Source: Acutalibacteraceae bacterium
GTDB lineage: Bacteria > Bacillota > Clostridia > Oscillospirales > Acutalibacteraceae
Assembly (NCBI GenBank): GCA_050953725.1
Contig: JBMNNB010000003.1
Location: forward strand, 463,244 to 527,243
Length of the DNA stretch: 64,000 nucleotides
Direction of reading: 5' to 3'
In this document: positions 1 to 64,000 of the stretch, piece by piece
How positions within the stretch are numbered: the first letter of the stretch is position 1
How the letters are laid out: the number at the start of each line of letters is the position of its first letter
Translations under genes and position numbers: made by a program
Notes under the pieces: generated by a model
Told to the model about the DNA's origin: nothing
Seen by the model: the letters and a program-made list of their open reading frames with translations, nothing else
The model's database searches: none

Positions 1-381
1 AAAAAGGCCCTGATTCCGATTTATGTCTCGGTCTTACTGACCGGACTGTATTTCGGCTTTAATATGTGGTGGCTGCCCTACATCTATATTTGGACAATAC
101 TGTGGGCTGTTACTATGGCGCTGCCACGGAATATGTCGAAAAAGGCAAGGTATATTGTATATCCAATAGTCTGCTGCCTGCACGGTCTGCTTTACGGCAC
201 ACTCTACGCCCCTGCTCAGGCGCTTATGATGGGGCTCGGCTTCAAGGCCATGCTCGCCTGGATTGTGTCCGGCCTGCCGTGGGATTTGGTACACGGCGCA
301 GGAAACCTCGTGGCGGGGCTGCTGCTTGTCCCATTGGCAGAGCTACTGGGGAAATTACAGAAGGCGAATATAAGCATATAA
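1..381 (+). CDS. C-terminal part of a polytopic membrane protein (5' end outside window)
   Basis: Frame 1 is open from base 1 (KKALIPIYVSVLLTGLYFGFN) into listed ORF 64..381. Hydrophobic helices throughout. Stop TAA 379-381 is followed by a terminator. Confidence 0.5.
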   Translation, partial: KKALIPIYVSVLLTGLYFGFNMWWLPYIYIWTILWAVTMALPRNMSKKARYIVYPIVCCLHGLLYGTLYAPAQALMMGLGFKAMLAWIVSGLPWDLVHGAGNLVAGLLLVPLAELLGKLQKANISI

Positions 382-8192: not shown

Positions 8193-8489
8193 TTATCTTG
8201 AGAAGATGGTCTCAAAGAAAATCTTAATCTTAGCGAAGAAATCCTTTAACAGCTGGATTATCGAGCCGAACATGGTCAGCGGCGAATCCGGGTCGGAGGG
8301 AATATTGCCTCTTATGTCGTTGATTATCAGCATAAGTCCGGAGGTGTCGCCCTCAAAGACGTTCGGCAGCTCGGAGATCAAATCCATAAGTCCGTACTGC
8401 GAATTCTCAAACAGCTCTACTATATCCTGAGTATACGGGAATATCATCTGTATGACCGTATACAGCATCGACAGAACCTGGTCGTCCAA
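8193..8489 (-). CDS. probable frameshifted C-terminal segment of the 8407..12633 protein
   Basis: No RBS before the TTG start. The frame opens only 4 codons upstream (TAA at 8502-8504). The real terminator lies just after this ORF, not after the stop at 8407. The C-terminus FFAKIKIFFETIF resembles the C-terminus of the MBG giant. Confidence 0.5.
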   Translation of the reverse strand: MDDQVLSMLYTVIQMIFPYTQDIVELFENSQYGLMDLISELPNVFEGDTSGLMLIINDIRGNIPSDPDSPLTMFGSIIQLLKDFFAKIKIFFETIFSR

Positions 8490-11400
8490 GGCGTTTTTCG
8501 TTTATCTGCTTGTTGAAGTATCGCAATACCTCAAACAAGGTCGCCGAATCCTCTTCGCTCAAATTAAAGTAAGCGGTACAGTATTCGCCGAGGGCTTCAG
8601 CGTTTTCCGCATAGAACAGTACGCTGAAGAAGTACTTCATAATGACCGTCAGAAGGTCAGCGCCGTTGTCGCCCTGGATGTAGATGACGCCGGGACGCAT
8701 TGTCCTTGACATGGTCTTGTTGCCCTTGCGCTGCTCGTAGTAGACAGGCTCGCCGGATGCAAGCATCGTAACATCAACATTCGGGAGCTTCAGCATAAGC
8801 TTAACTGAGCTGCCGCCTACCTCGATGCCGTCACCGATGAAGCCTGCAAAAATATTGTCGACAAGCTGGTTAATGTTCAATTCGAGCGGGAGCGAGAGTC
8901 CGAGCTTGACGCCGCCGATTTCAAGGTTCTGCAGGAACTTGTTGACTAACGGTGTTGCGTCGATTATCGGGCTTAGGATGTCAAGAAGCACATATACGAC
9001 GTGTATCAGGTTGTTGAGTACTATATTCAGTCCGCCGATAGAGATAAAGTACATAAGGTTAGGCAGTATATCAAGGGCTGTGCCTATCGGATTGGAAATG
9101 AATCTGTCAAAGAGGCTGAGCAGCGGGTTGAGAATCAGGTAGAAGGTATCAATAGCACCGGTGGTGGGGTTGCTGATTGCAGCCTTGTACTGTGCGTAGG
9201 TTTTTACGTTCTGGCAGCTTAAAGCCTCAAGCAGCGGGATGATTGCATACTGATAGCCCGCATAGCCGGGAATGTGGACAAGGTCCACAAGGTTGAGGTC
9301 ACGGTCTGCAAGGAGAAGCTGAATAATGTCGGCGAAGGGTGAGAGCAATGCAACAAGGTTGTCAAGCCATGCGGCTCTGTCGCCGTCCTCAAAGCCCCAG
9401 TCAAGAGGCCTGTCGCTTGTGGCTACGACTACATGGTTGTTCTCGGTTCTGGTTTCGACCTCGCCGGTCTCCGGGTTGACCTCCAAGACTGTTTCGATAT
9501 AAGGCATGAAGCTGTGCTCAAAGAGCAGTGCGGGATCCCACTTGTTGTAAACATTTGAATATGCCAAATTGTTCTCCCAGTCGGGACGGGCAACATTCTG
9601 GAGCGCCAGCTGTACCTCGGAGGCGGGTCTGCCCGCTCTTGTGTTGAGGTATGCCATTCTTTCGGCAATGGTCTTGGGTGTATAGTCAAGTCCTGCGGCG
9701 ACAGAGAGAATTGCGTCAATATTAAGCCCTGTTATCGCCGGATAGACCATCATGGCTATATTTGTGAGCATTTCCTGAGTGAAGACATTCTCGGCAAGCA
9801 TATCGTTGACATACTGCTCCAGATCCGTCAAGCCTTCGATTTTAAGCACTTTAAGCATGCGCTCAGTCAGAACCGGAATAGCGGCAGCTAAGTATGTTGC
9901 CTTTTCCTTTGTCCAGATATCCGAATACTGTGCCGATGTGCCGAAGGACTTAGCTTCGACTATGGCGGGAGAATAGGTTATCTCCTGCATGGGATATTTA
10001 TAGGGATTGGACACATAGGAGCCGTCTGTGGGATATTTGCCGTTCTCGTTCGGGAAGAAGAACTCCTCAAGTGCAAGAATTACATCGTTAGGATGGATGG
10101 CAACGCCTGCTATCGCTTCGGCTGCAACCTTGCTCGTTACGGGCAGACCGAGCAGGTCGCCCAGTTGGGCGTCAAGGTCCGCTATATCAAGTCCGAAGCT
10201 TTCAAGCAGAGTCTTGCTTGCCCAGGTCTGAGCATTCTGATTATATGCTCTGTAGTTAATGCCTGTTAAGAGCCATCTGAGCATTGCAAAGAGGACCTGA
10301 CCTCTGAAATCCACGCCGGTCGCCTGGTCATATACCACGACCACATCTCGGGTCTGGGTTCCCGACGGGAATACCTTGTTGGTTATTATCTGGCCTCTGG
10401 TATGCAGGACTCTGTCGAGAATCGGGGGAAGGTATTTGATGTTGAAGCCGTCTTCCTCCTCTTCCTCATCCTCGTCGTCGCCGCCGACCAGCTTCAAGAC
10501 GCCGTTAATGCCGCCGCCGAGATTGGGATAGAAGTCATCAACTACGTCCCTGAGGGGCATGTCGTAGTTGTAAACCACAATACCGGAAACCTTTGCCTCA
10601 AGATGAATATTTATATTATTAATGATGTTCTGTACGGGGCTTACACCGTTCTTTGCGGTCAGGAAAATCGAAAGGTTCGGCAGAATCGAGGTGATTGTGC
10701 TTATCGGCTTTGATGCGACATCATTAAGAACCCAGTCGATTATCGGGTTAAGAATCGCACCCATAATATCGGTGTGTGAGCGCAGAGCCTTAAAGTCATT
10801 CCAGCTTATGAAGTTTGTGATTCCGAGGGTCTCGAACAGCGGAATGATGAGCTTCTGATAGGCCTCGATTCTCTGTACGGAAACATAGGCCAGCTGTCCT
10901 GCAAGCTCGATGTAGAGCTTAACATCGCCGAGCAATGTCCAGAGCAGAGGCTCAACCGGTGCAAAGATTGCGCCCATGGCGTTGATGAAGGCAGTCTTCT
11001 GGTCGTATGCGCTGTCAACGCCCCAGTCAAGCTCGACTCCCTTGGGCAGCGATTCGAGGTATTCCTCAAAGCCGACCCACTTGTTCGGGTCTGTAACATA
11101 GCCCTGACTGATGGCAGCATTCATGTGGTTCTTGATATTTGAATATTTGGCGGGGAGCCTGTCCCTTACATACTGGTACTGGAGGTAAATGCCCTCGTCT
11201 CTCAGCTCCTTGTAAAGGCCGATTGTATAGTTGTCAAGGGTGTCAGCCATATCCTCAAGCATCTCGTATACCATGGGATAAAGCATAAGGAAGAGGGATG
11301 TGACAATATTGTCACGGAAGATGAAGTCCTTTAACAGAACCTCGATAAGCTCCTTGCCGTTAGTGTATTTTAAGCCGTAGATGGGGCTGTCCTTATAATC

Positions 11401-12633
11401 GTCGCTGGAGGTATCAATGAAGGAGTTAAGTAAGGTACCGACATCATTTGAAAGCAACAGCGAGTCAATTTTATCTACCGTCTGATTAAGCCGTGAAAGA
11501 GTTGCGGAATATGTAACGCCCTCTGTTACCTCTCTTGTAATCGGATATGTGAAGGGCATTTCGGTTGAATAGTACCAGTTCATCAGGTTGGCAATCTTAT
11601 CGCCGAAGAAGTGGACAAGCAGCTTGTCGGAGTGCTGAAGAAGGTCTTCCACATAGGGCTTGTATGTATTGCGCTCGGTGGCGAGCTGGGCTGTGGTATA
11701 GCCGGAATAATCCCTTGTCAGAAGCTGTGAGGTTGCGCCGAACAGGTTCATGTTGGCCTGCTGAAGGGCTACCTGGACATTGATTTCCTGATAGTTATAG
11801 GGAGCGCCCTGCGGAGCTTCGGTGATGATATCCGAAAGGACATAGTTTACGACTGTGCCTTTTTCGTTGGTGATTCTTGCGTGCTTCCAGGTATACTTTG
11901 TATATCTGACATTAATGCTGTTGGGCAGGCTTTCAACCGATTCATAGGCCATAAGAGCCTCGTCGATGTCCGTCTGAACAACGAAGCTGTAGTCATAGTA
12001 CCAGTTGACGACGCTGACGCCGAGCTGGCCTGCTATGAAGTTTGTCAAGATTGCGGAAACGTTGTAGTAAAGATATCTCTCATAATCAACGGGCTTGTAA
12101 AGAGTGACATATTCCATTACTGTCCTGACCTCGGTGGTCTGGATGTATGTACCGGGGTTGTTCGGGTCCTCGACAACAACGGAAACCTCCTTCTGAACGG
12201 GAATCTCCTCCCTGTAAGGCTCCATTACCGTAATTGTGTCGCCCATTCTCAAGGCAAGCTCCTGCTTTATCTCATTGGCAATCATTACGGCGTTGTAGCT
12301 GCCCACACCGTATTCCGTGCTCTTTATAAGATTAGCTATCTCATAAAATTTCTGAGCGGCAAGAGTGATGTCACCGTTAAGGTTGTCCCTTGCGGTAACG
12401 GTGGAATAAACCTTATATCCGCCGTTGGGAATAAGGTCGTCCTCATCCGTATAGTTGGTTACGGAATAGTTGGAAGTATCCCTTACATATTCATTTGAAA
12501 GCAATTCAGCAAGCTCATCATATTTTTCAGAAAGCCCGGTCTCCTGAGCTGCCCCGACGATTCCAACCGCTGCGGAGGAAATAAGCATCAACGCAGCCAG
12601 AAGGGCGCTCAAAATTTTAGTGGAACGCTTCAT
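8407..12633 (-). CDS. large secreted protein of unknown function (1,408 aa as listed)
   Basis: AAGGAG RBS before ATG 12633. Signal peptide MKRSTKILSALLAALMLISSAAVGIVGA. Acidic tract GGDDEDEEEEEDG. Contains an internal ~100 aa duplication. I recognise no domain family. Confidence 0.8.
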   Translation of the reverse strand: MKRSTKILSALLAALMLISSAAVGIVGAAQETGLSEKYDELAELLSNEYVRDTSNYSVTNYTDEDDLIPNGGYKVYSTVTARDNLNGDITLAAQKFYEIANLIKSTEYGVGSYNAVMIANEIKQELALRMGDTITVMEPYREEIPVQKEVSVVVEDPNNPGTYIQTTEVRTVMEYVTLYKPVDYERYLYYNVSAILTNFIAGQLGVSVVNWYYDYSFVVQTDIDEALMAYESVESLPNSINVRYTKYTWKHARITNEKGTVVNYVLSDIITEAPQGAPYNYQEINVQVALQQANMNLFGATSQLLTRDYSGYTTAQLATERNTYKPYVEDLLQHSDKLLVHFFGDKIANLMNWYYSTEMPFTYPITREVTEGVTYSATLSRLNQTVDKIDSLLLSNDVGTLLNSFIDTSSDDYKDSPIYGLKYTNGKELIEVLLKDFIFRDNIVTSLFLMLYPMVYEMLEDMADTLDNYTIGLYKELRDEGIYLQYQYVRDRLPAKYSNIKNHMNAAISQGYVTDPNKWVGFEEYLESLPKGVELDWGVDSAYDQKTAFINAMGAIFAPVEPLLWTLLGDVKLYIELAGQLAYVSVQRIEAYQKLIIPLFETLGITNFISWNDFKALRSHTDIMGAILNPIIDWVLNDVASKPISTITSILPNLSIFLTAKNGVSPVQNIINNINIHLEAKVSGIVVYNYDMPLRDVVDDFYPNLGGGINGVLKLVGGDDEDEEEEEDGFNIKYLPPILDRVLHTRGQIITNKVFPSGTQTRDVVVVYDQATGVDFRGQVLFAMLRWLLTGINYRAYNQNAQTWASKTLLESFGLDIADLDAQLGDLLGLPVTSKVAAEAIAGVAIHPNDVILALEEFFFPNENGKYPTDGSYVSNPYKYPMQEITYSPAIVEAKSFGTSAQYSDIWTKEKATYLAAAIPVLTERMLKVLKIEGLTDLEQYVNDMLAENVFTQEMLTNIAMMVYPAITGLNIDAILSVAAGLDYTPKTIAERMAYLNTRAGRPASEVQLALQNVARPDWENNLAYSNVYNKWDPALLFEHSFMPYIETVLEVNPETGEVETRTENNHVVVATSDRPLDWGFEDGDRAAWLDNLVALLSPFADIIQLLLADRDLNLVDLVHIPGYAGYQYAIIPLLEALSCQNVKTYAQYKAAISNPTTGAIDTFYLILNPLLSLFDRFISNPIGTALDILPNLMYFISIGGLNIVLNNLIHVVYVLLDILSPIIDATPLVNKFLQNLEIGGVKLGLSLPLELNINQLVDNIFAGFIGDGIEVGGSSVKLMLKLPNVDVTMLASGEPVYYEQRKGNKTMSRTMRPGVIYIQGDNGADLLTVIMKYFFSVLFYAENAEALGEYCTAYFNLSEEDSATLFEVLRYFNKQINEKRLGRPGSVDAVYGHTDDIPVYSGYSRAV

Positions 12634-12748: not shown

Positions 12749-12914
12749 GCGACAATACGGGGCAATTTGTCCATTAACATAACTTCTGACAATTTCGGTT
12801 TGTTCAGCTTGACCAAAATGAGGGTGTAAAATTCATCATTTTGCAGGGCCCGGTGCAGAATTTGGTTTTATTTTCATATCGCTTTGTGCGCCTAAAGACA
12901 ATATGTCCCCTGAA

Positions 12915-13272
12915 GCGCAGCGGGATATGACGAGCCGGCGGGGGGGCGCGGGTCGCAGGGTGAAGGCGGGGCGCAAGACGCAGGTGAGACGGGGTGAAGG
13001 GCGGCAGGCAAGTTGCCCGCTCCCCTCGCCTGCAAGCACGGTGTGGCGAACATCGGGTCGGGGCGCAGGCGGCGGGGGGTGCGGGTCGCAGGGTGCGGGT
13101 GCGGGCGGCGGCGGGGAGTGCCGTTGCGGGAATGGCGGGGCGGGAGTACCTCTCCCACGGGCGGGGGCGCAGGCGGCGGGGGGGCTGCCGTTCCATTCGG
13201 GGTTGGGGCGTGGTGCGGGGAGAAACAGCGGAGGGGTTGCTTTTCGCTTTCCTTTGGCTGGGGGGGTGGGCT
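12915..13272. repeat. G+C-rich, G-skewed repeat island A
   Basis: GGCGGGGGG(C/T)GCGGGTCGCAGGGTG occurs at about 12937 and 13070. GGGGCGCAGGCGGCGGGGGG occurs at about 13060 and 13165. All six frames give P/G/R/A-rich low-complexity ORFs. Confidence 0.8.
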
Positions 13273-13449
13273 TTGTGAAAAAAGAATATGCTGTTTTCTA
13301 AATAAACTTTCACAAACACTCTGCTTATGTTATAATGTTATCAGGTTTTCGGCGGTCTGATTGGGGTAATTATCAATCGGGCTGCTTTGGGTATAATAAA
13401 TGCCGGCATACGGCTTCTCACAATCGTAGATAAAATAGGATGTGAATAA

Positions 13450-19235: not shown

Positions 19236-21491
19236 TTATGCTTTTATGCAGACGAGGTCGGTTACGGACACAAGGGGCAGCAGGCTGTAGCCGTCTTCGT
19301 CTGTGTAGCCTGCGGGCAGGACTATCTCGCCCTTCATACCTTCGGGTACGTTGACGCTGAGGAGAACCTTCTCGCCGTCACGCCTCCAGCTGACTTCGAT
19401 TTTGCCTAAAGGTGCGTTATGCCAGGCCTTAGCCCACCGAAGGTCTGTTATGAATTCAGGTGAAATCCTGACGCAGTTTACATCGTCAGCATTCGGGTTC
19501 AGTTTGATGCCGCCTATTGCCTGAATGAACCAGTTGCTTATATCTCCGAGGAAGTGGTGATTGTATGAGGTTGCAAAGTCCGTGTAGTCCATCCTGAACT
19601 CCTCGGGCAGGGAGGTAAAGCCCTGTGCGACCCAGTGGCCGTAGGAAGGCGGGTCCTTTCTGACTATCATCTTAAAGGCAATATCCGCATAGCCTGCGTC
19701 GGAAAGAACATGGAAGATGACCCGAAGACCGAGCATTCCTGCGTCTATGTGATAGTCCTTTTCCTCTATGAGCTTAAGCAGGACTTCGAGGGCTTTCGCT
19801 CTTTCGCCCTCCTCAAAGACCCCGTAATAGATTGCAAGTGCCTGTGAGGTCTGGCAGCGTCCTGCTACGGTCATTGTGGCGAAGTTAATAAGGTGCTTCC
19901 TTATATTCCTCCTGATTTTATCCTTAAAGGCTCTTGCAAACTGCATCTGCAGCTCCTTGCCTAAGACCTTGAATATATGCTCCGCCATGGCGGCGATATT
20001 CATGGAGACTATGCTGTTTGTGACCTCAACGGGGGCTATGGGCTTGTCGGCGTGGCGGTTTGCATGTACCCAGTCGCCCAGACCGAAGTCAATAAGACCT
20101 CTTTCATTCAGGTGCTCATCAAGGTAGTTGATATATCTCATTATGGAGGTTGCGTTCTCTTTAAGAATCTTTGTCGTACCTCTGTACTTATAGACCATGT
20201 AGGGCAGCATTGTCATAACCTGGTCCCAGCAGGGGCCGTTGCCCCACTTATAGCCCCAGCCGCCTGTGGGGATTATGCCCGGCAGCTTGCCTGTTTCAGT
20301 CTGGGTGTCACGGATATTGAAAAGCCACTCACGGTAAGCATTTTCGGGGGTGAGGTTAAGCAGCATATGCTCTGCGGAGACTGCCGCATCGCCGGTCCAG
20401 CCGTTCTTTTCCCTATGGGGGCAGTCCGTGGGAAAATAATAGAAGTTTGCAAGGTCGGAGACTCTGACCATTTTCTGAAGGGCGTTGATTATTTCATCCG
20501 AGCATTCAAAGTCGCCGTTTTCCTTCAAATCCGTGTGCATTACAAGGTAGGTCAGCAGCTCCTCTGTGGCCTGCTCCTCGGTGATGCCCGTTACATAGGC
20601 GTATCTGAAGCCGTAGTATGTAAAGGAGGGGACATGTACTTCCGTTTCGCCGCCTTTGAGGGTATAGACTGTCTTCTGTGAATAGCCCTCAGGGTAGAAT
20701 TTATGATAGTTGGAGGTGTCGAACTCGCCTCTGTGTATCCAGTCACCGTGGTCGACTGTTATGGTCTGACCGCTTTCGCCCCTGATTTTTATCCTTGTTA
20801 CGCCCGCATAGTTTACTCCGAAGTCATATAGCCAGCCGTCCTTGTGCTTCACGACGGAAACGGGCTTTAATTCACGGCTTACTACAATAGGCTCGCACTC
20901 GCACACTTTAGCCTTGCCTCTGGGAACCTCGGAGATAATGCAATTGTCCCATGAGCTGTCGTCAAATCCTACATCACACCATGAGTCGATTTCAAGCCTT
21001 GCGTCGTAAATCTCGCCGCAGCGAAGGGAGTCAAACAGAATCGGCGAGGGGTGGGTTTTAAATGAGGTGTCGGAGGTCAGAAGAACATTATCTTCCTCCT
21101 TTGCGGTGTCAGTAATAGAAAGGGCGACCCTCGGCGCTCCCCTGTGCTTTGCGGTATCAAAATCCCAGACATAGCCGTCGAAGCCGTTTGTCATGCCGTT
21201 GCCGAGAATGACGCCGATTACGTTTTCGCCGACCTGAAGCAAATCAGTTAAATCATACTTATCGAAATATGTATAGCTGTCGGGGTTTGAGGTGTAGGGC
21301 GCAAGGGGGCCCTTTGTGATTTCTCTGCCGTTGACAAATACACGGTAATAGCCGAGTCCGCAGATGAGCAGCTCAGGCTTTTCGGGCATTTTTTCGAGGG
21401 TAAAAGCCTTGCGGATGCAGGGTGCGGGAATGTGATTGTCAAAGCCGCCCCATTCTCTTGTAGCGCCTATAAAAACAGTTGGGAAGTCCAT
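19236..21491 (-). CDS. alpha-L-rhamnosidase (GH78)
   Basis: About 750 aa. N-terminus FIGATREWGGFDNHIPAPCIRKAF is typical of bacterial rhamnosidase N-domains. No signal peptide. ATG 21491 is preceded by GGAGGA. Confidence 0.7.
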   Translation of the reverse strand: MDFPTVFIGATREWGGFDNHIPAPCIRKAFTLEKMPEKPELLICGLGYYRVFVNGREITKGPLAPYTSNPDSYTYFDKYDLTDLLQVGENVIGVILGNGMTNGFDGYVWDFDTAKHRGAPRVALSITDTAKEEDNVLLTSDTSFKTHPSPILFDSLRCGEIYDARLEIDSWCDVGFDDSSWDNCIISEVPRGKAKVCECEPIVVSRELKPVSVVKHKDGWLYDFGVNYAGVTRIKIRGESGQTITVDHGDWIHRGEFDTSNYHKFYPEGYSQKTVYTLKGGETEVHVPSFTYYGFRYAYVTGITEEQATEELLTYLVMHTDLKENGDFECSDEIINALQKMVRVSDLANFYYFPTDCPHREKNGWTGDAAVSAEHMLLNLTPENAYREWLFNIRDTQTETGKLPGIIPTGGWGYKWGNGPCWDQVMTMLPYMVYKYRGTTKILKENATSIMRYINYLDEHLNERGLIDFGLGDWVHANRHADKPIAPVEVTNSIVSMNIAAMAEHIFKVLGKELQMQFARAFKDKIRRNIRKHLINFATMTVAGRCQTSQALAIYYGVFEEGERAKALEVLLKLIEEKDYHIDAGMLGLRVIFHVLSDAGYADIAFKMIVRKDPPSYGHWVAQGFTSLPEEFRMDYTDFATSYNHHFLGDISNWFIQAIGGIKLNPNADDVNCVRISPEFITDLRWAKAWHNAPLGKIEVSWRRDGEKVLLSVNVPEGMKGEIVLPAGYTDEDGYSLLPLVSVTDLVCIKA

Positions 21492-21665
21492 GTTTATCCT
21501 CCGTTTCGTCATTTGCTGTCATTAAACTGAGTATACATTGACCGCTCTGCTAAGGCAAGAATTTTGTGGAAGCTGAGAAAAAAAGTCCGTGCCTGCGGAA
21601 GTCCCATTCAAAGGACTTAAATGGAAAATAAACGGGAATTTCAGTATAAACAGCCATTATTTATA

Positions 21666-21694
21666 TTGACAAGCACCATTCCCGCCGATACAAT
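21666..21694 (+). promoter_or_regulatory. near-consensus promoter firing rightward into repeat island B
   Basis: TTGACA (21666-21671), 17-nt spacer, TACAAT (21689-21694). No ORF with an RBS follows for about 1 kb. Confidence 0.6.
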
Positions 21695-21839
21695 GTAATC
21701 AGAACCGAACAAATGTTCTGTTTGTGCGGCGAATCCCCGAACAGGAAAACCAAAAGTGGGGAGGATTAGCCTTCACGCTTAAAGCCGAAATCAATAGCCC
21801 CGTTGATTTCTTCCGCTCAGAAGCCGGGCTGCCCCTCTT

Positions 21840-22400
21840 GCCCTCAACCTGTATAAAGCGTCGCCCCGTGCGGCGGGCGGGGGGTGCACGAACGCCGAAC
21901 GGGTGCGGGCGGCAACAAAGCCCCGTGGTCGCTTTGCCCTTTTGGAGTATCGCCTATCCAGCGTGGGCGGGCGGAAATTGTACCGCACGCCGGCGGGCGG
22001 GGGTTGCCCCACCGTTGGGGGGTGCGAGAGGTGAACGCAAAGCCCCGTGTTCGCCTTGCCCCGATTGAAGCGTGTTGCCTATTCCGTGCGCGGGCGGGCT
22101 GGGGGGGTGCCCCACCGTCGGGCGGGTGCGAGAGGTGAACGCAAAGCCCCGTGGTCGCCTTGCCCTTTAGCGGTTGCCTATCCAGCGTGGGCGGGCGGAA
22201 ATTGTACCGCACGCCGGCGGGCGGGGGTTTCCCCTCCGTTGGTGGGAGGGGAACAGATACAAAACCCCGTGTTCGCCTTGCCCCGGTTGAGGTGTTAACC
22301 TACCCTTGCAGCGGGCGGGCTGGGGGGGTGCACGAACGCCGAACGGGTGCGGGCGGCGGACAATAAGCCCCTTGTTCGCCCTGCCCCGTGTTTCAGGCTT
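21840..22400. repeat. G+C-rich tandem-repeat island B (five 100-125 bp modules, super-period about 222-224 bp)
   Basis: TATCCAGCGTGGGCGGGCGGAAATTGTACCGCACGCCGGCGGGCGGGGG starts at 21955 and 22179. GTGCACGAACGCCGAACGGGTGCGGGCGGC starts at 21884 and 22328. GTGCGAGAGGTGAACGCAAAGCCCCGTG starts at 22022 and 22126. Confidence 0.85.
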
Positions 22401-22545
22401 ACCCTTTGCCCCGTGTGACATACACTTTACTTTGCCCCGTTTGAGTGTATGCGCTGTACCCCGTTTGCCTTTTTGCCCCGTTTGGGGTGTGACAATTCGC
22501 CCCGATTTCCACTCGTTATAAGCCCCGTTAAATAAGAACTCCCGT
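22383..22545 (+). repeat. iteron-like ladder of 8 direct (T)TGCCCCGT(T/G) boxes
   Basis: GCCCCGT-type cores start at 22383, 22408, 22434, 22458, 22475, 22499, 22522 and 22540, giving spacings of 25, 26, 24, 17, 24, 23 and 18 bp. Confidence 0.75.
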
Positions 22546-22728
22546 ATATCCCTGCCCTTTTTCACAGTTTTTATAGCTTACATTTGCGTTTAGCTTATGT
22601 GGGTCTTTTATTTTTATCCTTTTTGCCCCTTCACGATTTCAGGGCGGGTCTTTCCCTCTGCCCGCTCTGGACGCTGCCTTTTTAATCTTGGACAACATCC
22701 TTACGGAGAAACAGAGAGGATGAGAAAA

Positions 22729-23166
22729 ATGAAGCATAAGAACATTCACATAAACTGCGAGCTGATTGCCGACGATTCGCAGCTTGAGGCTCTCAGAAAA
22801 ATCGAGGAGGACTGCTCAGGCCTCGGCAAGCGGCGTCTGAATCTCACGGAGCTTATCAGCATCGCCATTCGTGACGAGCTGACCGAGGCGGAAAGAAAGG
22901 CCGTAGAGCTTTTCTGGTTCAAGGGTCTGAAGGTCAGCGAAGCCGCCCGTTACTTAGGCGTCAGCAGCGCAACGATAACAAAAACCCTTGACAGAGCAAA
23001 GCTCAGGCTCTTCAACGCACTGAAATATGCCGTGCTTTACAGTCTTGACCTGACGGACTGCCCGGAGATTACCGAAAACGCCTCGGAAATCGCCAGAAAC
23101 GCACAGCTTTTCATCTGCCGAAGGCCTGACAACAAAAATCCCACCGAAAGGGCTGAGAAAACTTGA
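22729..23166 (+). CDS. sigma-70 region-4-like HTH regulator (phage late-gene activator-like)
   Basis: RKAVELFWFKGLKVSEAARYLGVSSATITKTLDRAKLRLFNAL is a sigma region-4 type HTH. GAGAGGA lies 8 nt before ATG 22729; the listed start 22597 lies in non-coding-looking sequence. Confidence 0.6.
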   Translation: MKHKNIHINCELIADDSQLEALRKIEEDCSGLGKRRLNLTELISIAIRDELTEAERKAVELFWFKGLKVSEAARYLGVSSATITKTLDRAKLRLFNALKYAVLYSLDLTDCPEITENASEIARNAQLFICRRPDNKNPTERAEKT

Positions 23167-23387
23167 GCACAAAGTCACTTGCTGCCCTTGCGGGCGAATA
23201 CATAGAGAGCGCAAGGCTGCAGACTCAGATTATAAACAAGTACAACGAGCGAAAACGAGAAGCTTTAAAGAGCCGCAACAGGGATGAGCTGCTTGTCTGC
23301 TCAAGGGCTCTTGCCGTTTTGTATTCCGCAAGGCGTGATTTGCTCGAAACTGCGGATTTACTTAGCAGTTACTATGACCGAAGCTGA
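23163..23387 (+). CDS. small helical protein, unknown function (phage-associated)
   Basis: 74 aa. TTG start overlaps the stop of the upstream gene, suggesting translational coupling. Confidence 0.4.
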   Translation: MSTKSLAALAGEYIESARLQTQIINKYNERKREALKSRNRDELLVCSRALAVLYSARRDLLETADLLSSYYDRS

Positions 23388-39358: not shown

Positions 39359-39392
39359 AAATATTTCAGATGAGACCAAATGGAATAAAAGT

Positions 39393-40112
39393 GTGCGGGC
39401 GAGGCTTGGCTCACGCTCACTCTTGACGATTTTCTTCCCTCGCCGGCGGGTCGTGCGAGCGGCGGGGCGAGGTGCGGGGAGATTGCTCGTCGTGCGGGCT
39501 TCGGCGGGGACTTCCTCCCACAACAGCAGGCGGGCGGTGGCGAAGAACGAAAAAAAAAGGGGCGGGGACGGCGGATTATTAGCCCCGTGCGGCAGGGCGG
39601 CGGTTTTTTCGCTCACCTCTCCCCATTGCAGCAAGGCAGGCAGGTGGGTGGAGTAAACGGCGTGCGGTGGCGGGGTGCGGGGAGATTGCTCGTCGTGCGG
39701 GCTTCGGCGGGGACTTCCTCCCACAACAGCAGGCGGGCGGTGGCGAAGAACGAAAAAAAAAGGGGCGGGGACGGCGGATTATTAGCCCCGTGCGGCAGGG
39801 CGGCGGTTTTTTCGCTCACCTCTCCCCATTGCAGCAAGGCAGGCAGGTGGGTGGAGTAAACGGCGTGCGGTGGCGGGGTGTCGCTCTCGTACGGCGCAAG
39901 AGGTGAAAGAAATAGGCGGAGACGGTGGGCGGAGCTGTCCGCTCCCCTCGCAATTGGATGACAGGGCGGGAAAAGAAAAAAGACGGGGCGTTCCCCTCGC
40001 CGGCGGGTCGTGCGAGCGGCGGGGCGGGGTGCGGCGGGGATGTACACTTCACTCGCAATCGGGTGCAGGCGGGTGGGCGCTCCCGTATGGGTGGGAGAGG
40101 GTGGATTCGGGC
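39393..40112. repeat. G+C-rich repeat island C with a perfect 203-bp tandem duplication
   Basis: 39471-39673 is identical by eye to 39674-39876 (the ORF track shows identical translations). A 33-bp direct repeat CCCTCGCCGGCGGGTCGTGCGAGCGGCGGGGCG occurs at 39437-39469 and 39994-40026. Confidence 0.9.
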
Positions 40113-40140
40113 ATGAAAAAGGGACGCATGATGCGTCCCT
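40113..40140 (-). terminator. Rho-independent terminator (beta-galactosidase)
   Basis: GGGACGCAT (40121-40129) pairs with ATGCGTCCC (40131-40139). The minus strand continues TTTTTC. Confidence 0.8.
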
Positions 40141-40172
40141 TCATTTGTGCGTTTTTTTGCCGTAGTTGCTTA

Positions 40173-52599: not shown

Positions 52600-52694
52600 T
52601 TAAAGCGTCTGGAGCTTTGCGGCCACACGAAGGATTATTCGTGCGTCGGAGGGTTTTACACCCGCCTCTCCGTCAGTGTTGTCGGGAAAGACAT
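52600..52694 (-). pseudogene. 3'-terminal remnant of a dockerin-protein paralogue
   Basis: About 90 bp, roughly 80% identical by eye to 50309-50400. Translates to FPDNTDGEAGVKPSDARIILRVAAKLQTL*, versus ANTDGEAGVKASDARIILRVAAKLQTL* in the intact gene. Similarity stops abruptly at repeat island D. Confidence 0.8.
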
Positions 52695-52835
52695 GGCGGG
52701 TGGGGATGCTGTCCTCTCCCTCGACTGTGCTGACGGAAGCGGATGGGGTGCGGGGCGGAACGCCTCCCCTTTTCCCGTCATGGAGGGGACGAGGGGCGTA
52801 CAGGCTGGGGTGGAGCGGATTCTGCCGTTAGGAAC
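52695..52835. repeat. G+C-rich island D (short member of the family)
   Basis: G-rich + strand with GGGGTGCGGGGCGG, CTCTCCCTCG and GGAGGGGACGAGGGGCG. Lies between the gene remnant and the CDGSH terminator. Confidence 0.55.
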
Positions 52836-52868
52836 AAAAAACGGCGGGAGGGGTTACCTTCCGCCGTG
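52834..52868 (-). terminator. Rho-independent terminator (CDGSH gene)
   Basis: ACGGCGG (52841-52847) pairs with CCGCCGT (52861-52867). The minus strand continues with T6. Confidence 0.65.
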
Positions 52869-52907
52869 TGGGTTATTCTGTTGGTCTGAGTTTTGCCTTT
52901 GGGTCTG

Positions 52908-59185: not shown

Positions 59186-60199
59186 TTATGCTCTCTCCAG
59201 AACGATAACCTTGGAGGCGTCGTCGAAAATCTTGGAGAAGCCGAAGGTGCAGGTGATGGCCGCTCTCTCAAGCTGTCTGTCAATGAGCTTGTCATACTCG
59301 GTCACAATGCCGCCGGCTCTTACCAGCTCAAGGGCGCAGTTTTTGTCAAGGCCTATAAGGACATCCGCAGCGAAGGAGGGGATTTTGACAAGCTCTGCTC
59401 CGAGGGGTGTCACGAGCTTGCCCGTGGCGTGGAAGGAAAGTCCCGCAACGGAGTCTCTGAACTCCTCCATGGCAAGTATCGTCCTCAAGACTTCGGGCGT
59501 GGCGAGTATGGCGTTGAGCTCATAGGGGTCGAACTTGCCCCAGAAATCAAGAAGGTCTGAGTAAGTAAGAACGCCTTCCTCCTTTGTATCCACGATTTCT
59601 GCCGGATTTTCGTTGCCGTCGCCTAAGAGAATGGTGGCAATGGCGTGCTGAACCTGACTTCTTGCAATCTGTGCGCCTATCTGCTTTAAGGTGACGGTGA
59701 ACAGGTCAATCCTCTGGAAGCGGATAGCTTCGTATGAGGCCACAAGCATCCTGCCCATTTTCTTTAGGCGGACAAGGTTCTCCTTGGTCTTGATGCTGGT
59801 TTCGGGGATAATAGCGCCCTCGGCAACCATTTTAAGCTCCTTGTCGTCCTCTGAAGGAATGGAGGTGATTGTCCTGTAATCAAGTGCGTCGATGTCTGTG
59901 ACCGTTGCGACGATTTTCGGGAGGATATTCGCATCCTCCATGCCCTGCCTTACGGCGCGGGAGACATATTCGGGGAAGAGGGCTGCGGACTCGGAGGTAC
60001 TGAAGAACTTCTCTACCTTGTCGCTGCCGGGGCCGCCCACTCTGATGTCGAATCTTTTAAGCTGACGCTGGTATGCGTCAAGACCCTCAAGGGCGGTACC
60101 CTTGTAATTCTCGGAAGGGTCAAGTGCCTCAAGAGCCGCCGTAAAGCCGCCCTTTGCCGAGTACATGCCCTTTTCGAGCCTGATGTTTTCATAAGACAT
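59186..60199 (-). CDS. major capsid protein
   Basis: 337 aa counted from ATG 60199 (GAGAGGAG RBS). Assigned by position after the protease/scaffold and small head protein. Composition is typical of a capsid protein. Confidence 0.65.
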   Translation of the reverse strand: MSYENIRLEKGMYSAKGGFTAALEALDPSENYKGTALEGLDAYQRQLKRFDIRVGGPGSDKVEKFFSTSESAALFPEYVSRAVRQGMEDANILPKIVATVTDIDALDYRTITSIPSEDDKELKMVAEGAIIPETSIKTKENLVRLKKMGRMLVASYEAIRFQRIDLFTVTLKQIGAQIARSQVQHAIATILLGDGNENPAEIVDTKEEGVLTYSDLLDFWGKFDPYELNAILATPEVLRTILAMEEFRDSVAGLSFHATGKLVTPLGAELVKIPSFAADVLIGLDKNCALELVRAGGIVTEYDKLIDRQLERAAITCTFGFSKIFDDASKVIVLERA

Positions 60200-60218
60200 A
60201 GTATTTCTCCTCTCTGAA

Positions 60219-60563
60219 TTAAAGAATAATTCCGATTGTGCCGTCTGTCTCGTTGACACTGAGAATAAAGACCTTGCGGCCGCTGTCGTCTATGGAGACG
60301 GCGCCGTCGTCGGCACCTGTAATGCCCTGATAACCGACGCTTGCATCCTCAATGTTCGCACAGGGTAAGGTGGCAAAGCCGCCCACCTGAACAGCCGCAT
60401 AGCCCTCCCTGACGCTTAAAGCAAGTCCGAAGACATCGGTGCCTTCAGAAGCGGCTGTGACCTCGTTGTTGCCGGAGATGCTGACTGCGACGCCCGCCGT
60501 AACCGAATCCGAGGCCTGCAAGGTAATAATTTTCTCGTCAAAGCCTTTTAATGAAACTAACAT
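60219..60563 (-). CDS. small head protein (decoration or scaffold-associated?)
   Basis: 114 aa, beta-rich, lying between the protease/scaffold and capsid genes. Confidence 0.35.
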   Translation of the reverse strand: MLVSLKGFDEKIITLQASDSVTAGVAVSISGNNEVTAASEGTDVFGLALSVREGYAAVQVGGFATLPCANIEDASVGYQGITGADDGAVSIDDSGRKVFILSVNETDGTIGIIL

Positions 60564-60581: not shown

Positions 60582-61556
60582 TTAAATTCTGAACCCGCTG
60601 TTGTCGGGTGAGGCTGTTTTAGCCTCGGGAATAAGCTGAGGAGCAAAATCAAGGCCATCCTCATCCGCAAAGCCCTTAACAAGTGCTTCCAAATCCTTTG
60701 CGGGAAGGCTTTCCAGAACGGTTTTGAAAACGGCGGTGTCCATTTTGGGCAGCCTTACTGCCGACAGGGACAGCGCCTTTTTCATAAGGCTGCTTTTGTA
60801 ATGCTCGCCGTCCGCAGCCGCCCTTTCGAGGGTTGCGATATAGCTTTTAAGCTGCGCCGTTTCAAAGGCGTCGAGCACCGTTTCACCCTTTTGCTCACCG
60901 AGTTTTTTAAGTATGTCTGTCACGCTTTTTTCACCTCTTTTGCTTTCCTCTGTTTTTCCGAACTGCTTTGTTACACGGGCGCCCTTCTGGGCGGGAACCG
61001 CTACAAAGGACCACTCGTATGCGTCGACAGCATCATAGAGAATCCTGTGACACAGCCTGCCCTCGACCTGTGTGCCGGGTCTGTGGGAGCAGGAAGAGTT
61101 TTCCGCCTTACAGACAGAGCAGACAGCCCTTTTGACACTGCAGGATACGCTGACCTCACGCTTAATGCCCGCTTCGATTTCAGCTATCAGGCTCTTGTTT
61201 TTTTCGTTTCTCAGCATATAGCAGTGTGCCTTGAGATAGGTATAAGGCTCCCCTGCGGAGGTTGTCCGCTCTTTGTCCGTAATAAGCTCAGTGTCGAATA
61301 TCCTTGCGGTCTGGTTTTCGGCCCTCATGCTGTGGTCGAAGATGCCCGTCACGCCCTTGAACAGCTCCTTTAAGGCTTTAAGGCTCTCAACAGAGAAGCG
61401 CTCAAAGTCCCTGTCTATCTCGTTGTCACAGAGGATGACGCTGAAGACGAAGACCTCCTCCTCAGACAGCGGCTTTAAGGAGTAGCTGTTGATTTTCTCA
61501 ATGTCCGATTTCGTAACGGAAAAAACAGCTTCATTTAATCTCTTTTCTTTTTTCAA
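60582..61556 (-). CDS. prohead protease / scaffolding protein
   Basis: 324 aa, immediately after portal with a 4-nt overlap. The N-terminal half has DRDFERF...GIFDHS and a Cys cluster; the C-terminal half is helical and scaffold-like. Confidence 0.5.
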   Translation of the reverse strand: MKKEKRLNEAVFSVTKSDIEKINSYSLKPLSEEEVFVFSVILCDNEIDRDFERFSVESLKALKELFKGVTGIFDHSMRAENQTARIFDTELITDKERTTSAGEPYTYLKAHCYMLRNEKNKSLIAEIEAGIKREVSVSCSVKRAVCSVCKAENSSCSHRPGTQVEGRLCHRILYDAVDAYEWSFVAVPAQKGARVTKQFGKTEESKRGEKSVTDILKKLGEQKGETVLDAFETAQLKSYIATLERAAADGEHYKSSLMKKALSLSAVRLPKMDTAVFKTVLESLPAKDLEALVKGFADEDGLDFAPQLIPEAKTASPDNSGFRI

Positions 61557-62749
61557 AAAGTTTCCTCCTGTTCCGTTAAGCTCTCATCAGTGACGATTTC
61601 AGGCTCTAACCCCTGCTCGATTTCGGCGGCTCTTGCGTTGTTGAGCCTTGCCTTTGACAGCTCCACCTCGTCCTGAAGGCTGATTTCGTTCCACTTTACA
61701 GAAAAGCCGCCTTTAAGGCCGTTAAGCCTGATATACGTGCCGACGACCCTCTGAAGCACCGGATTTAAAAGCTTTCTGTAAAACTGCAGCTCGCTTGTGA
61801 GCATGTCGGTCTGCTGGGCGGCCATTCGCTCCGTGGTGGACCAGTTAAGTCCCAGCATAAAGGGCGGCAGGCCGAGCTTTGCTATTATCTGCTCGAGCAG
61901 CTGCCTGACGGGGACCTCGCTGTCAAGAACCTGATTGTCCGCACCGATTACTTTGATGTCCACATCGCCCACGGCAATGAAGTCCTTGATTTCGCTGCCG
62001 CTCTGCATGGCCGCCGACCACTCGGAGGCAATCTGCATGGCCCTCTCTTTGGCGTAGAGCTTGTCATTAGGGTCGTTCTTCGGTCTGTAAGTCACCGCAT
62101 AGCGCAGATTCCCCACACGCTCGAAGTTAAGGCCGATTGTGTTGTAAATCTTCATCAGCACACTGCTTATAAATGGCAGACCCTTTAATATGGAGTTGCC
62201 CTGAAGGCTGCCCGCATCGGGATTTAGCAGTGTCAGAAGGATAAGCTCCTGATGCCGCACGGGTACGGGCTGTGAGCCGGTCATGGTGCAGACAAGCACC
62301 TTTGAGCTGTCACTCTTGTCCCTTGTGAGCACTATGTCCCTTAAATCCGCCCGATACAGCGACATTTCTGCGGGCGAAGCCCTGCCCGGAAGGATTTCGG
62401 CCACCGCAGTGCCGTATGTAAGAAGCTGCTCGAAATAAGCGCTTACGAAGCTGTGAATACCCCGCTGGCAGCCGTCGACGACCACATTTTTCAGAAATTC
62501 ATCGACCTGCCTTTGCGTGTATGAGTTCTCGCAGCGAATCTCAAAGCCGCCTATGAGCCTTGCTAACTTCCTTATGCCCGCATCGATAATGGGAACGCTC
62601 TCTCTGAGGGTCTTGTAGAGATTTGCGTCGCCGTGAAAGCTGCACATATTCATATAGTCATCGAAAAAGCTCTTCTGCCCTTTAGCCCTTGTCTGGGGAG
62701 CGGCTGCCGCCCCCGTTGATAAGGGCTCTTTTTTGCTGAACAGTCCCAA
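61553..62749 (-). CDS. phage portal protein
   Basis: 398 aa, with size and position typical of portal. TTG start follows GAGGTG. Confidence 0.7.
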   Translation of the reverse strand: MGLFSKKEPLSTGAAAAPQTRAKGQKSFFDDYMNMCSFHGDANLYKTLRESVPIIDAGIRKLARLIGGFEIRCENSYTQRQVDEFLKNVVVDGCQRGIHSFVSAYFEQLLTYGTAVAEILPGRASPAEMSLYRADLRDIVLTRDKSDSSKVLVCTMTGSQPVPVRHQELILLTLLNPDAGSLQGNSILKGLPFISSVLMKIYNTIGLNFERVGNLRYAVTYRPKNDPNDKLYAKERAMQIASEWSAAMQSGSEIKDFIAVGDVDIKVIGADNQVLDSEVPVRQLLEQIIAKLGLPPFMLGLNWSTTERMAAQQTDMLTSELQFYRKLLNPVLQRVVGTYIRLNGLKGGFSVKWNEISLQDEVELSKARLNNARAAEIEQGLEPEIVTDESLTEQEETF

Positions 62750-62865
62750 ATTCTCACCTCAATTTTCAAAATTAACCCCAGCCCGCCCATTAAACTGCGA
62801 TGGCAGAGCGCAGGGTGTCGGAAAGCCCGAACCTCCGCAACGCATGGAAAGCCCTGCCCTGAACC

Positions 62866-63800: not shown

Positions 63801-63816
63801 GCTGCCCTGCGGTCAA

Positions 63817-64000
63817 TCAAGCCCTGCGGCGGACTGCGCCTGAAGCAAGGGCGAAGAAGGCTTCGTCGCCGCCGTCGCTTAGTACGGTGCTGACAAAATA
63901 GCGCATATCGTCCATGGCGTGGTCGTGCTCCTTCCTTACGCTGTCCTTCGTCTGCGCCGTGTCCCACCTGTAAAGACCGAACTCCCGTATAATGTCCTTG
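63817..64000 (-). CDS. terL: terminase large subunit, C-terminal end (5' part outside window)
   Basis: The minus-strand frame reads KDIIREFGLYRWDTAQTKDSVRKEHDHAMDDMRYFVSTVLSDGGDEAFFALASGAVRRRA* with stop at 63819-63817. YRWD...DHAMDxxRY is the characteristic C-terminal motif of large terminases. Not in the ORF track because its start lies outside the window. Confidence 0.75.
   Translation of the reverse strand, partial: KDIIREFGLYRWDTAQTKDSVRKEHDHAMDDMRYFVSTVLSDGGDEAFFALASGAVRRRA

Follow-up and report, generated by a model that had tools for sequence, protein, structure and literature searches.

Ahead of a small sigma-like gene, an uncultured Clostridiales bacterium from a digester has a genuine untranslated cis-regulatory leader. 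This leader carries a candidate for a new hairpin motif and is lengthened by a variable repeat array; its mode of action we infer from sequence. With moderate confidence, it is read here as the SOS-controlled 5' leader of a domesticated prophage-remnant operon, furnished with a terminator/anti-Shine-Dalgarno (anti-SD) lock and with GCCCC loops that would serve as docking sites. The locus was compared across three closely related species, namely that of the window (the whole 64-kb stretch of DNA analysed; hereafter sp1) and two sister species, sp2 and sp3. A preliminary description of the same DNA had proposed a promoter-driven, long ORF-less leader, possibly built of conserved structured RNA modules, before a phage regulator operon. 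The leader part of that description stands, with both its promoter and a predicted LexA operator kept in the two sister species, and the modules as conserved structured RNA do not. A stand-alone RNA ending at the terminator-like hairpin may also be made. The coordinates of the features are collected in Table 1.

Table 1. Features of the leader and of the first operon gene, in window positions (loops in square brackets; operator, pairing elements and stem-loops as predicted).
Feature	Position	Strand	Remarks
Sigma-70-type promoter TTGACA-17-TACAAT	21666..21694	+	11/12 consensus positions
Predicted LexA (SOS) operator CGAACAAATGTTC	21706..21718	.	12 nt past -10
First GCCCC-loop stem-loop GAAATCAAT[AGCCCC]GTTGATTTC	21787..21810	+	9 bp, -8.4 kcal/mol, z -6.5
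G-rich minisatellite, 5 modules, short and long units alternating	21844..22386	+	
Module 1	21844-21939		96 nt
Module 2	21940-22061		122 nt
Module 3	22062-22165		104 nt
Module 4	22166-22283		118 nt
Module 5	22284-22386		103 nt
Module-terminal stem-loop GAGGTGAACGC[AAAGCCCC]GTGTTCGCCTT	22028..22057	+	-16 kcal/mol, z -5.0
Equivalents of the module-terminal stem-loop	~21909-21936; 22132-22161; 22250-22277		second with one mismatch, third weak
Terminal stem-loop of last module, GGGC GGCGGACAA[TAAGCCCC]TTGTTCGCC ct GCCC	22351..22386	+	-19.1 kcal/mol, z -3.5
C-rich, G-poor tail with six (T/A)(T/A)RCCCCG(T/A)-type iterons	22387..22560	+	C 31%, G 19.5%, T 34% (174 nt)
Tail stem-loop CATACACTT[..TTGCCCCGTTT]GAGTGTATG	22419-22451	+	z -4.4
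Terminator-like hairpin (22576-22604), then U-rich tract CUUUUAUUUUUAUCCUUUUUG	22576..22625	+	kept in 3 species
Anti-SD sequence	22611-22625	+	in U-rich tract
Stem-loop UUCAGGGCGGGU...GCCCGCUCUGGA between anti-SD and SD	22638..22671	+	12 bp in MFE structure
Second, nearby anti-SD CAUCCUU	22696-22702		
Shine-Dalgarno (SD) region CAGAGAGGAUGAGAA	22712..22726	+	predicted pairing with 22611-22625
First operon gene, 145-aa protein, sigma-70 region 4 helix-turn-helix	22729..23166	+	Pfam Sigma70_r4_2, 3.4e-8

Promoter, predicted LexA operator and lysis operon

The near-consensus rightward promoter named in the preliminary description was confirmed, and it is kept as TTGACAA...CGCCGATACAAT in the sister species (L017 and L016/L020). 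Just past its -10 element lies the only CGAACN4GTTC sequence in the 64 kb, a predicted LexA operator placed at about +5 to +18 when counted from the presumed transcription start. The operator consensus in Bacillus and Clostridium is GAACN4GTTC/T (PMC4234289). As in Firmicute SOS promoters, a sequence of this form is found at the promoter/start region and is kept in the orthologous loci: the operator core is invariant in the window species, in L017 (sp2) and in L016/L020/L021 (sp3), where it forms the perfect palindrome CGAACAAATGTTCG. Promoter and operator are preserved in both sister species though the rest of the leader is largely unalignable. Because the operator stands directly after the -10 element and is conserved in two sister species, the promoter is probably under SOS (LexA) control, with LexA binding predicted at this site.

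The claim of about 1 kb of leader without a gene was likewise borne out, in that no credible gene was found before the ATG at 22729 (an ATG at 22720 is an alternative start used by some gene callers). Of the open reading frames in the array, one of 114 aa lies on the + strand and two, of 122 and 132 aa, on the - strand; none gave a PHROG match. The module lengths are mostly not multiples of three so that the reading frame shifts between strains, and the GCCCC motif of the leader falls in all three frames; for these reasons a coding function was rejected. No tRNA or tmRNA was found. The whole window was without a match at the gathering thresholds of Rfam 15, and at E<=10 the interval 21400-22900 gave a single match, DUF3800-XI, at 14.7 bits against a gathering score of 37.8 bits. 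No similarity to phage or plasmid DNA was detected, and viral scans for conserved leader blocks gave no matches. A scan of viral contigs for three spaced GCCCCGT motifs matched at least 120 unrelated stretches, which were treated as noise; GCCCCGT at regular intervals would be consistent with collagen-like Gly-Pro repeats.

The seven-gene operon downstream is a domesticated prophage remnant. Its first gene encodes the 145-aa sigma region 4-like protein; next come three genes for products without known function (74, 231 and 277 aa), then those for a lysin of the NlpC/P60-dockerin type, a 97-aa protein and a holin. Neither gene content nor gene order differs among the three species. The first gene product resembles a DNA-binding helix-turn-helix protein, and its matches to the NCBIfam sigma-70/ECF models are confined to region 4. 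Neither structural phage genes nor packaging genes are left in the cassette, no RNA-binding domain was detected among its proteins, and none of the seven had a toxin match in PADLOC. A split sigma factor of the SigO/RsoA kind, formed by the region 4 protein and the 74-aa protein, was unsupported by structure models: the 74-aa protein was modelled as a plain two-helix hairpin (pLDDT 94) and the model of the sigma-like protein was poor (pLDDT 58). A small-terminase pac site was also set aside, the PHROG match being weak (E 0.009) and the cassette having no packaging genes. In a wider homologue search, relatives of the sigma-like and 231-aa proteins were found in only two other species, and for this reason large-scale covariation analysis is impossible at present.

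The repeat array and its variation among strains

The five-module array reported earlier was recovered, with module lengths of 96-122 nt and a super-period of 221-224 nt. All five modules end, as had been proposed, in GCCCCGTKKTCGCCYTGCCC with at most one mismatch (five matches against 0.05 expected), and the bracketing repeat AGCCCCGTT was found at both 21796 and 22521. The module end occurs nowhere else in the 64 kb, a confinement that does not fit a dispersed family of the MIRU/REP/BOX kind; a scan of a genome collection returned five single matches in unrelated metagenome-assembled genomes, presumed to be chance. The G+C content of the modules is 66-70%, compared with about 50% in the flanks. 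Units are 67-100% identical, with lengths of 90-123 nt across strains, and the array went unreported by Tandem Repeats Finder because its copies are too divergent.

Module number varies among strains from one to at least seven, while the flanks and the downstream protein are identical. These counts come from 13 complete arrays with one to five modules and one incomplete array with at least seven, all in short-read metagenome assemblies in which many contigs break inside the array and some low counts may be collapsed. The odd upstream context of one locus (L007) is a scaffold gap of 100 N. As judged from sequence, the array behaves as a minisatellite (VNTR), since its units lie head to tail and differ in copy number between strains with identical flanks. 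The G-rich modules are absent from both sp2 and sp3. Given this absence and the variable copy number, the modules are no separate machine and no conserved RNA machine, and they cannot be essential.

The structural claim made for the modules also failed. The preliminary description had noted a small hairpin whose two arms seemed to change together between copies. The three variants (CCCCA/TGGGG, TCCCCTCC/GGAGGGGA and GCAC/GTGC) pair in different registers and are swapped as blocks, and chimeric arms occur, for example in L014 and L023. When 11 module variants were aligned, the common-register hairpin was 68% paired with no compensatory change, and it was not recovered by RNAalifold. The module region as a whole folds no better than shuffled sequence (z -1.3 on the + strand, +0.65 on the - strand). 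A canonical G-quadruplex array was rejected, as the G3+N1-7 x4 motif is present in two of the five modules only, both times as GGGCGGGCTGGGGGGG (at 22092 and 22313).

GCCCC stem-loops and the gene-adjacent hairpin

The conserved structured parts of the leader are, as predicted from folding and comparison, the stem-loops that present GCCCC and a terminator-like/anti-SD element next to the gene. The candidate element is a stem-loop, specific to the + strand, whose loop is about 8 nt long and shows GCCCC. Among 28 motif sites in the three species, seven had stems of 8 bp or more, where flank shuffles gave an expectation of 0.65; stems of at least 9 bp were found at 4 of the 20 RCCCC sites in the leader and at 0 of the 219 elsewhere in the window. 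Single GCCCC hairpins had z-scores of -3.2 to -6.5, and the summed hairpin energy was -129.5 kcal/mol on the + strand versus -98.6 kcal/mol on the - strand. The window has 19 GCCCCGT sites, of which ten fall within the leader region (730 nt), these ten all on the + strand. Outside it the motif is divided between the strands (4 on +, 5 on -), and a strand-skewed motif of the Chi/KOPS type was rejected. The repeat-free sister leaders carry the motif as well, with six RCCCC sites within about 170 nt in sp2 and only one or two motifs in sp3.

G·U pairs occur in the stems, and comparison of the species reveals compensatory changes, a covariation that rests on few independent events, the three species being close and the module copies paralogues. 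The sp2 equivalent of the first stem-loop, CGCAATCA[AAGCCCCG]TGATTGCG, keeps its pairing through changes on both arms. The helix at the module ends is the consensus helix of RNAalifold; 98% of its cells are paired, compared with 41-58% in slid controls. In six of its pairs the variation passes through G·U; in one other both bases are replaced, the pair being CG in eight module variants and AU in three. The pattern overall is that of a multi-hairpin loop motif, recurrent in the loop, strand-specific and borne on stems of unrelated sequence. About three-quarters of the motif copies sit on weak stems of 3-6 bp, and the position of GCCCC in the loop differs by 1-2 nt from one hairpin to another, so the loop may not be what is recognised.

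The same motifs might instead be DNA iterons, about 20 (T/A)RCCCCGT repeats serving as duplex sites for the downstream helix-turn-helix protein or another repressor, with autoregulation or a roadblock within the transcribed leader as the outcome and the hairpins incidental. The repeats are indeed direct and of one orientation, they are kept in the sister species amid diverging sequence, and the first gene encodes a DNA-binding protein of the sigma region 4 type. However, their spacing is irregular (16, 26, 24, 17, 26 and 21 nt) and out of helical phase, and inverted repeats whose arm sequences differ between copies enclose the motifs far above chance. Nor would a duplex site need G·U pairs or a + strand that folds better than its complement, and this explanation is considered unlikely.

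A similarly small probability is given to a neutral minisatellite in a repeat-prone genome, by which the array, and perhaps the motif cluster, would be a functionless island of slippage or unequal recombination. The copy-number range, the absence of the array from the sister species and the unremarkable fold of the module region all agree with it. The window moreover has five GC-rich intergenic islands including the leader array; two others are tandem arrays of units of about 200 nt, and one island lies in a second phage remnant, where it separates terL from the portal gene. These islands, however, share no homology beyond G-rich k-mers (<=19 nt). Neutrality does not account for the GCCCC motifs and stem-loops that sp2 and sp3 retain although their leaders are free of repeats, for the pairing that the module-terminal helix maintains, or for the invariance among strains of the non-repeated tail (22387-22728).

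In the preferred reading, that of a locked SOS leader, the tail leads to the terminator-like/anti-SD element. Its first part, the C-rich interval in Table 1, is identical in all strains, and the segment 22380-22740 folds with z -2.6. The terminator-like hairpin, 190 nt past the array, has predicted energies of -11.4, -9.0 and -11.1 kcal/mol in the three species (z -4.4, -3.0 and -3.2), with pairing-preserving changes among them, and the + strand folds far better than the - strand. Its stem is rich in AU and GU pairs, and it went unflagged by a consensus terminator scan. The anti-SD sequence in the U-rich tract is predicted to pair with the SD region over 15 bp in sp1 and 12 bp in sp3, and sp2 would use the nearer anti-SD. 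The stem-loop between the two partners has its sp2 counterpart in UCGGAGCGGC/GCCGCUCCGA, with other arm sequences in the same place. Hairpin, U-tract and a predicted alternative pairing that masks the SD, with equivalents in sp2 and sp3, together have the sequence features of an intrinsic terminator or translational attenuator, at which the termination point is tentatively placed. A Rho-dependent attenuator, in which the C-rich, G-poor tail would act as a rut site and Rho would end untranslated leader transcripts before the lysis genes, draws on the composition of the tail, on the length of the untranslated leader and on the regular recurrence of a C-rich, CC-containing motif, but is very unlikely given the G-rich module region upstream (G 38%, C 30%), which disfavours Rho loading, the several motifs held within structured hairpins, and the scarcity of motifs in sp3.

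Proposed mechanism and comparison with known systems

Prophage-derived lysis cassettes need very tight repression, and known ones are kept off by repressors and dedicated sigma or antiterminator proteins. The control region described here unites a predicted LexA operator with a terminator-like hairpin that would mask the ribosome-binding site; its third component is a recurring loop motif unmatched in Rfam. In the proposed mechanism, DNA damage would remove LexA and transcription would enter the leader. Most transcripts would then end at the terminator-like hairpin or have their ribosome-binding site sequestered, and the lethal lysis genes would thus stay off unless a second input acted on the leader. 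That input probably docks at the GCCCC loops and would be an RNA-binding factor that antiterminates or unmasks the ribosome-binding site. The modules probably arose by unequal recombination from a leader segment consisting of one GCCCC stem-loop and G-rich filler, and their number alters both the count of GCCCC loops and the length of the leader. If the loops are docking sites, the motif would be a small RNA element not described before, and the locus a simple two-key model of programmed lysis in anaerobic-digester Clostridia.

A more far-reaching version of this mechanism, considered doubtful, is that the GCCCC stem-loops are an undescribed cis-acting RNA element recruiting a factor to override the terminator/anti-SD lock and that the array is a contingency locus for the self-lysis threshold. 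If true, an SOS-induced domesticated lysis cassette would gain a second checkpoint, and the number of docking loops in each strain would set its threshold for self-lysis. The strains with one to at least seven modules form a natural allelic series for relating leader length to expression.

LexA/SOS-induced lysis modules occur in defective prophages and bacteriocin loci, for example Bacillus subtilis PBSX (with the sigma-like Xpf) and Clostridium perfringens uviA/bcn. The present locus resembles these in its DNA-damage-responsive promoter (here predicted), its early gene for a small sigma-related regulator, the holin and lysin downstream, and its nature as a domesticated element fixed at one chromosomal site. 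It differs from them in that LexA appears to act directly at the promoter, that region 4 is the only part of sigma detected in the regulator, that promoter and regulator are separated by about 0.2-1 kb of leader with repeated C-rich loops, and that structural phage genes are gone from the cassette.

Multi-hairpin protein-binding RNAs such as the lambda boxB/nut antitermination sites and the CsrB/RsmZ-type sponge RNAs also present several sense-oriented stem-loops with unrelated stems and a common short loop motif. By a similar logic, the stem-loops here lie ahead of a terminator-like element and of a ribosome-binding site that is predicted to be sequestered; in contrast to those RNAs, many motif copies lie outside convincing hairpins and there is no Rfam match. 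To our knowledge, the GCCCC loop motif matches no described family.

In type III toxin-antitoxin systems (ToxIN, CptIN, TenpIN), near-identical short repeats (36 nt in ToxI) lie upstream of the toxin gene, in the order promoter, tandem repeat array, palindromic terminator and gene (PMC3401426). The present locus, with promoter, tandem array and gene in this succession, would follow the full order if its terminator-like palindrome does act as a terminator. The units here, however, are 96-123 nt long and divergent, the downstream helix-turn-helix protein has no ToxN, CptN or TenpN match, and the orthologous loci of the sister species are without a tandem array.

The array shares with bacterial intergenic minisatellites of the MIRU-VNTR type its co-oriented, head-to-tail intergenic units of about 100 nt and a strain-variable copy number between identical flanks. 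It differs in that the unit is not dispersed (there is no second copy in the 64 kb, and the units of the other islands are unrelated), in its alternation of short and long units, and in a G+C content far above that of the genome. The density of GC-rich intergenic islands, five in 64 kb, is a genome feature of this lineage, and short-read assemblies break there.

Promoter and operon

The leader, an ORF-less stretch of about 1 kb ahead of a small phage operon, is real and unusual, but the "conserved modular RNA" of the preliminary description is replaced here by a variable minisatellite, a candidate hairpin motif and an apparent attenuator. The rightward promoter proposed in that description is strengthened, and a regulator can be added to it. 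Promoter and the adjoining box CGAACAAATGTTC are invariant in two sister species, and the remainder of the leader is largely unalignable among the three. The box fits the LexA operator of Bacillus and Clostridium, GAACN4GTTC/T (PMC4234289), is the sole such box within the 64-kb window, and is a perfect palindrome in species 3. The leader promoter is probably SOS-controlled, with LexA as the predicted repressor. A second promoter-like sequence, back-to-back with the first and overlapping its -35, presumably serves the upstream alpha-L-rhamnosidase gene on the opposite strand.

The downstream genes form a tight operon of seven, with the regulator first and the holin last. Because its content is a regulator plus lysis genes, it looks like a prophage remnant cut down to these functions. 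Two in-frame ATGs are available to the first gene (22720-22731); JGI gene calls start at 22720 (148 aa), whereas Shine-Dalgarno spacing favours 22729. Only three uncultured Clostridiales, closely related to one another and all from anaerobic digesters or bioreactors, proved to carry the cassette, at the same chromosomal position in each. The first protein of species 2 (contigs L017-L019) is 90% identical to that of the window species (species 1), and that of species 3 (L016, L020, L021, L149 and L150) about 85%. The 74-aa protein, for which neither protein families nor PDB sequences gave a match, is predicted with high confidence (pLDDT 94) to fold as a two-helix antiparallel hairpin, and as modeled it does not resemble a partner of the sigma region 2 type.

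Features of the leader, operon and surrounding window
Feature	Position	Strand	Remarks
Promoter-like TTGTCA-18-TATACT	21643-21672	-	10/12 consensus positions
Promoter-like TTGACA-17-TACAAT	21666-21694	+	11/12 consensus positions
LexA operator candidate	21706-21718		12 bases after -10 hexamer
Stem-loop	21787-21810		GAAATCAAT (loop AGCCCC) GTTGATTTC
Module 1	21844-21939	+	
Module 2	21940-22061	+	
Module 3	22062-22165	+	
Module 4	22166-22283	+	
Module 5	22284-22386	+	
Stem-loop	module ends		GAGGTGAACGC (loop AAAGCCCC) GTGTTCGCCTT
Stem-loop	module ends		GGCGGACAA (loop TAAGCCCC) TTGTTCGCC
Stem-loop	tail		CATACACTT (loop ...GCCCC...) GAGTGTATG
Stem-loop	species 2 leader		CGCAATCA (loop AAGCCCCG) TGATTGCG
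Stem-loop	species 2 leader		TGCACTCT (loop ...) GGAGTGCA
Stem-loop	species 3 leader		CCCGATAT (loop TGCCCCGT) ATGTCGGG
Operon gene 1	ATG 22729	+	145 aa, sigma-70 region 4 helix-turn-helix only
Operon genes 2-4		+	74, 231 and 277 aa, no family match
74-aa protein	23163-23387	+	
Operon gene 5		+	NlpC/P60 peptidase with dockerin
Operon gene 6		+	97 aa
Operon gene 7		+	Phage_holin_5_2 holin
1408-aa protein	8407-12633	-	no Pfam match
GC-rich island	12876-13275		intergenic
GC-rich island	39376-40150		intergenic
GC-rich island	52651-52875		intergenic
GC-rich island	62776-63925		intergenic
Second phage remnant	53711-64000	-	
Major head protein	59186-60259	-	
Portal gene	61553-62749	-	phrog_30703, 1e-124
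terL 3' end	runs off window	-	motif ...KDSVRKEHDHAMDDMRY
phrog_16951 protein	second phage remnant	-	

The module array

The five G+C-rich modules with a shared end and a super-period, as first described, were recovered. No credible gene lies between the promoter and ATG 22729: the ORFs of the G+C-rich stretch gave no PHROG match, and with module lengths of 90-123 nt a reading frame would shift from strain to strain. The common end GCCCCGTKKTCGCCYTGCCC is present five times in the array (0.05 expected) and, within the 64-kb window, is confined to it; long direct repeats recur at intervals of 221-224 nt, and G+C reaches 66-70% compared with about 50% in the flanks. Tandem Repeats Finder does not report the array because its copies are too divergent, and the leader had no match in Rfam or among tRNA, phage or plasmid records.

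Among contigs encoding an identical first protein, the arrays differ while the flanks are identical. Module lengths (nt) in complete arrays include 99; 96, 120; 98, 103; 96, 122, 103; 99, 123, 104; 99, 98, 123, 103; 96, 123, 98, 123, 97; and, in the window, 96, 122, 104, 118, 103; these contigs are mostly short-read metagenome assemblies, many ending inside the array, so that individual copy numbers may be collapsed, although several architectures agree among independent assemblies. One incomplete array holds at least seven modules. (Contig L007 shows different upstream genes on account of a scaffold gap.) Short units of about 97-104 nt alternate with long units of about 118-123 nt that carry an extra GGGCGGGCGG-hairpin insert, and variants differ by swapped blocks and chimeras, the product expected of unequal recombination. 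The modules are absent from the leaders of species 2 (about 440 nt) and species 3 (about 230 nt), and the region folds no better than shuffles (z = -1.3 on the + strand, +0.65 on the - strand). Judged by these comparisons, the modules are a strain-variable minisatellite, behaving like a VNTR, rather than a conserved structured RNA.

Such a minisatellite could be functionless, and four further GC-rich islands (63-81%, against 50% G+C for the window overall) lend weight to that reading. All are non-coding and mostly G-rich on the + strand. In one (39462-39880), 2.1 copies of a 203-nt unit are 99% identical; the one at 12876-13275 hardly varies among strains (about 99.5% identical in 8 of 10 other contigs), with a deletion of about 65 nt in one contig and a partial alignment in another. 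No homology links one island to another, and they have only short G-rich k-mers in common with the leader array, which, like the confinement of the shared end to this array, sets the modules apart from a dispersed repeat family. Their unrelatedness speaks for array formation being a trait of the lineage at large, which tempers a functional reading of the modules.

Stem-loops and the conserved 3' part

The small hairpin whose arms were thought to change together did not hold up. Its three variants pair in different registers; in an alignment of 11 module variants the helix in their common register is 68% paired and shows not one compensatory change, and it is missing from the RNAalifold prediction. 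A local hairpin of some kind is open to every variant, as readily happens where G-runs and C-runs are neighbours, and such pairing does not amount to covariation.

A smaller candidate motif is the GCCCC stem-loop. The leader contains about 20 copies of the sequence (T/A)(T/A)RCCCCGT, all in sense orientation, and the motif is kept in the repeat-free leaders (six copies in species 2, one or two in species 3). Most copies have weak stems only; in a subset the motif occupies the loop of a stem-loop, its position sliding by 1-2 nt and the arms varying from copy to copy. Under a single search rule, stems of at least 9 bp were found at 4 of 20 leader sites versus 0 of 219 elsewhere in the window. 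Across the three species, seven sites have stems of at least 8 bp versus 0.65 expected from shuffled flanks. Single hairpins scored z = -3.2 to -6.5. RNAalifold recovers the module-terminal helix, which is 98% paired (41-58% in slid controls), with six pairs varying via G·U and one switching between CG (8 sequences) and AU (3), counts drawn from module copies that are paralogues, not independent samples.

At the 3' end of the leader, a hairpin with folding energies of -9 to -11.4 kcal/mol is common to all three species, with substitutions that keep pairing, and is followed by CUUUUAUUUUUAUCCUUUUU. This U-tract shows complementarity to the ribosome-binding site AGAGAGGAUGAGAA, extending for 15 bp in species 1 and 12 bp in species 3, and a second, nearer anti-Shine-Dalgarno sequence, CAUCCUU, is present in species 1 and 2. 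Segment 22380-22740 folds with z = -2.6; a simple consensus scan did not call the hairpin a terminator. This part resembles an attenuator and a translational lock in one. The C-rich tail following the modules (C 31%, G 19.5%) might alternatively load Rho.

From the promoter with its LexA box, the GCCCC stem-loops and the conserved 3' part, each supported at the sequence level, we infer a model in which LexA cleavage would open the promoter, the leader would then limit expression through termination and masking of the ribosome-binding site, and a factor recognizing GCCCC loops would relieve the block. Were the motif copies instead iterons bound as duplex DNA by the helix-turn-helix protein, the greater summed hairpin stability of the + strand (-129.5 versus -98.6 kcal/mol) would be harder to accommodate, since it fits RNA, or a single-stranded form of the + strand, better. 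The logic resembles that of nut/boxB sites and CsrB-type multi-hairpin RNAs, the GCCCC loops here being putative binding sites for a partner protein. The locus also recalls the promoter, repeats, palindrome, gene order of type III toxin-antitoxin systems (PMC3401426) but departs from them in unit size, unit identity, downstream protein and repeat-free orthologues.

Other features of the locus

Some strains carry an insertion, absent from the window, that separates the asparagine synthase gene from the rhamnosidase gene (L011, 584-2783; L159, 9059-11212); it encodes four small proteins and a regulator with a WYL domain. The 1408-aa protein probably carries variable repeats of its own, because its counterparts in other strains range from 1478 to 1499 aa. 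In the second phage remnant, where ABC-transporter genes follow the phage genes, one of the four GC-rich islands, situated between terL and the portal gene, is a 1.1-kb tandem array of 196-nt units with short variants of 102 nt. In other samples the contigs stop at the border of this array, immediately upstream of the portal gene.
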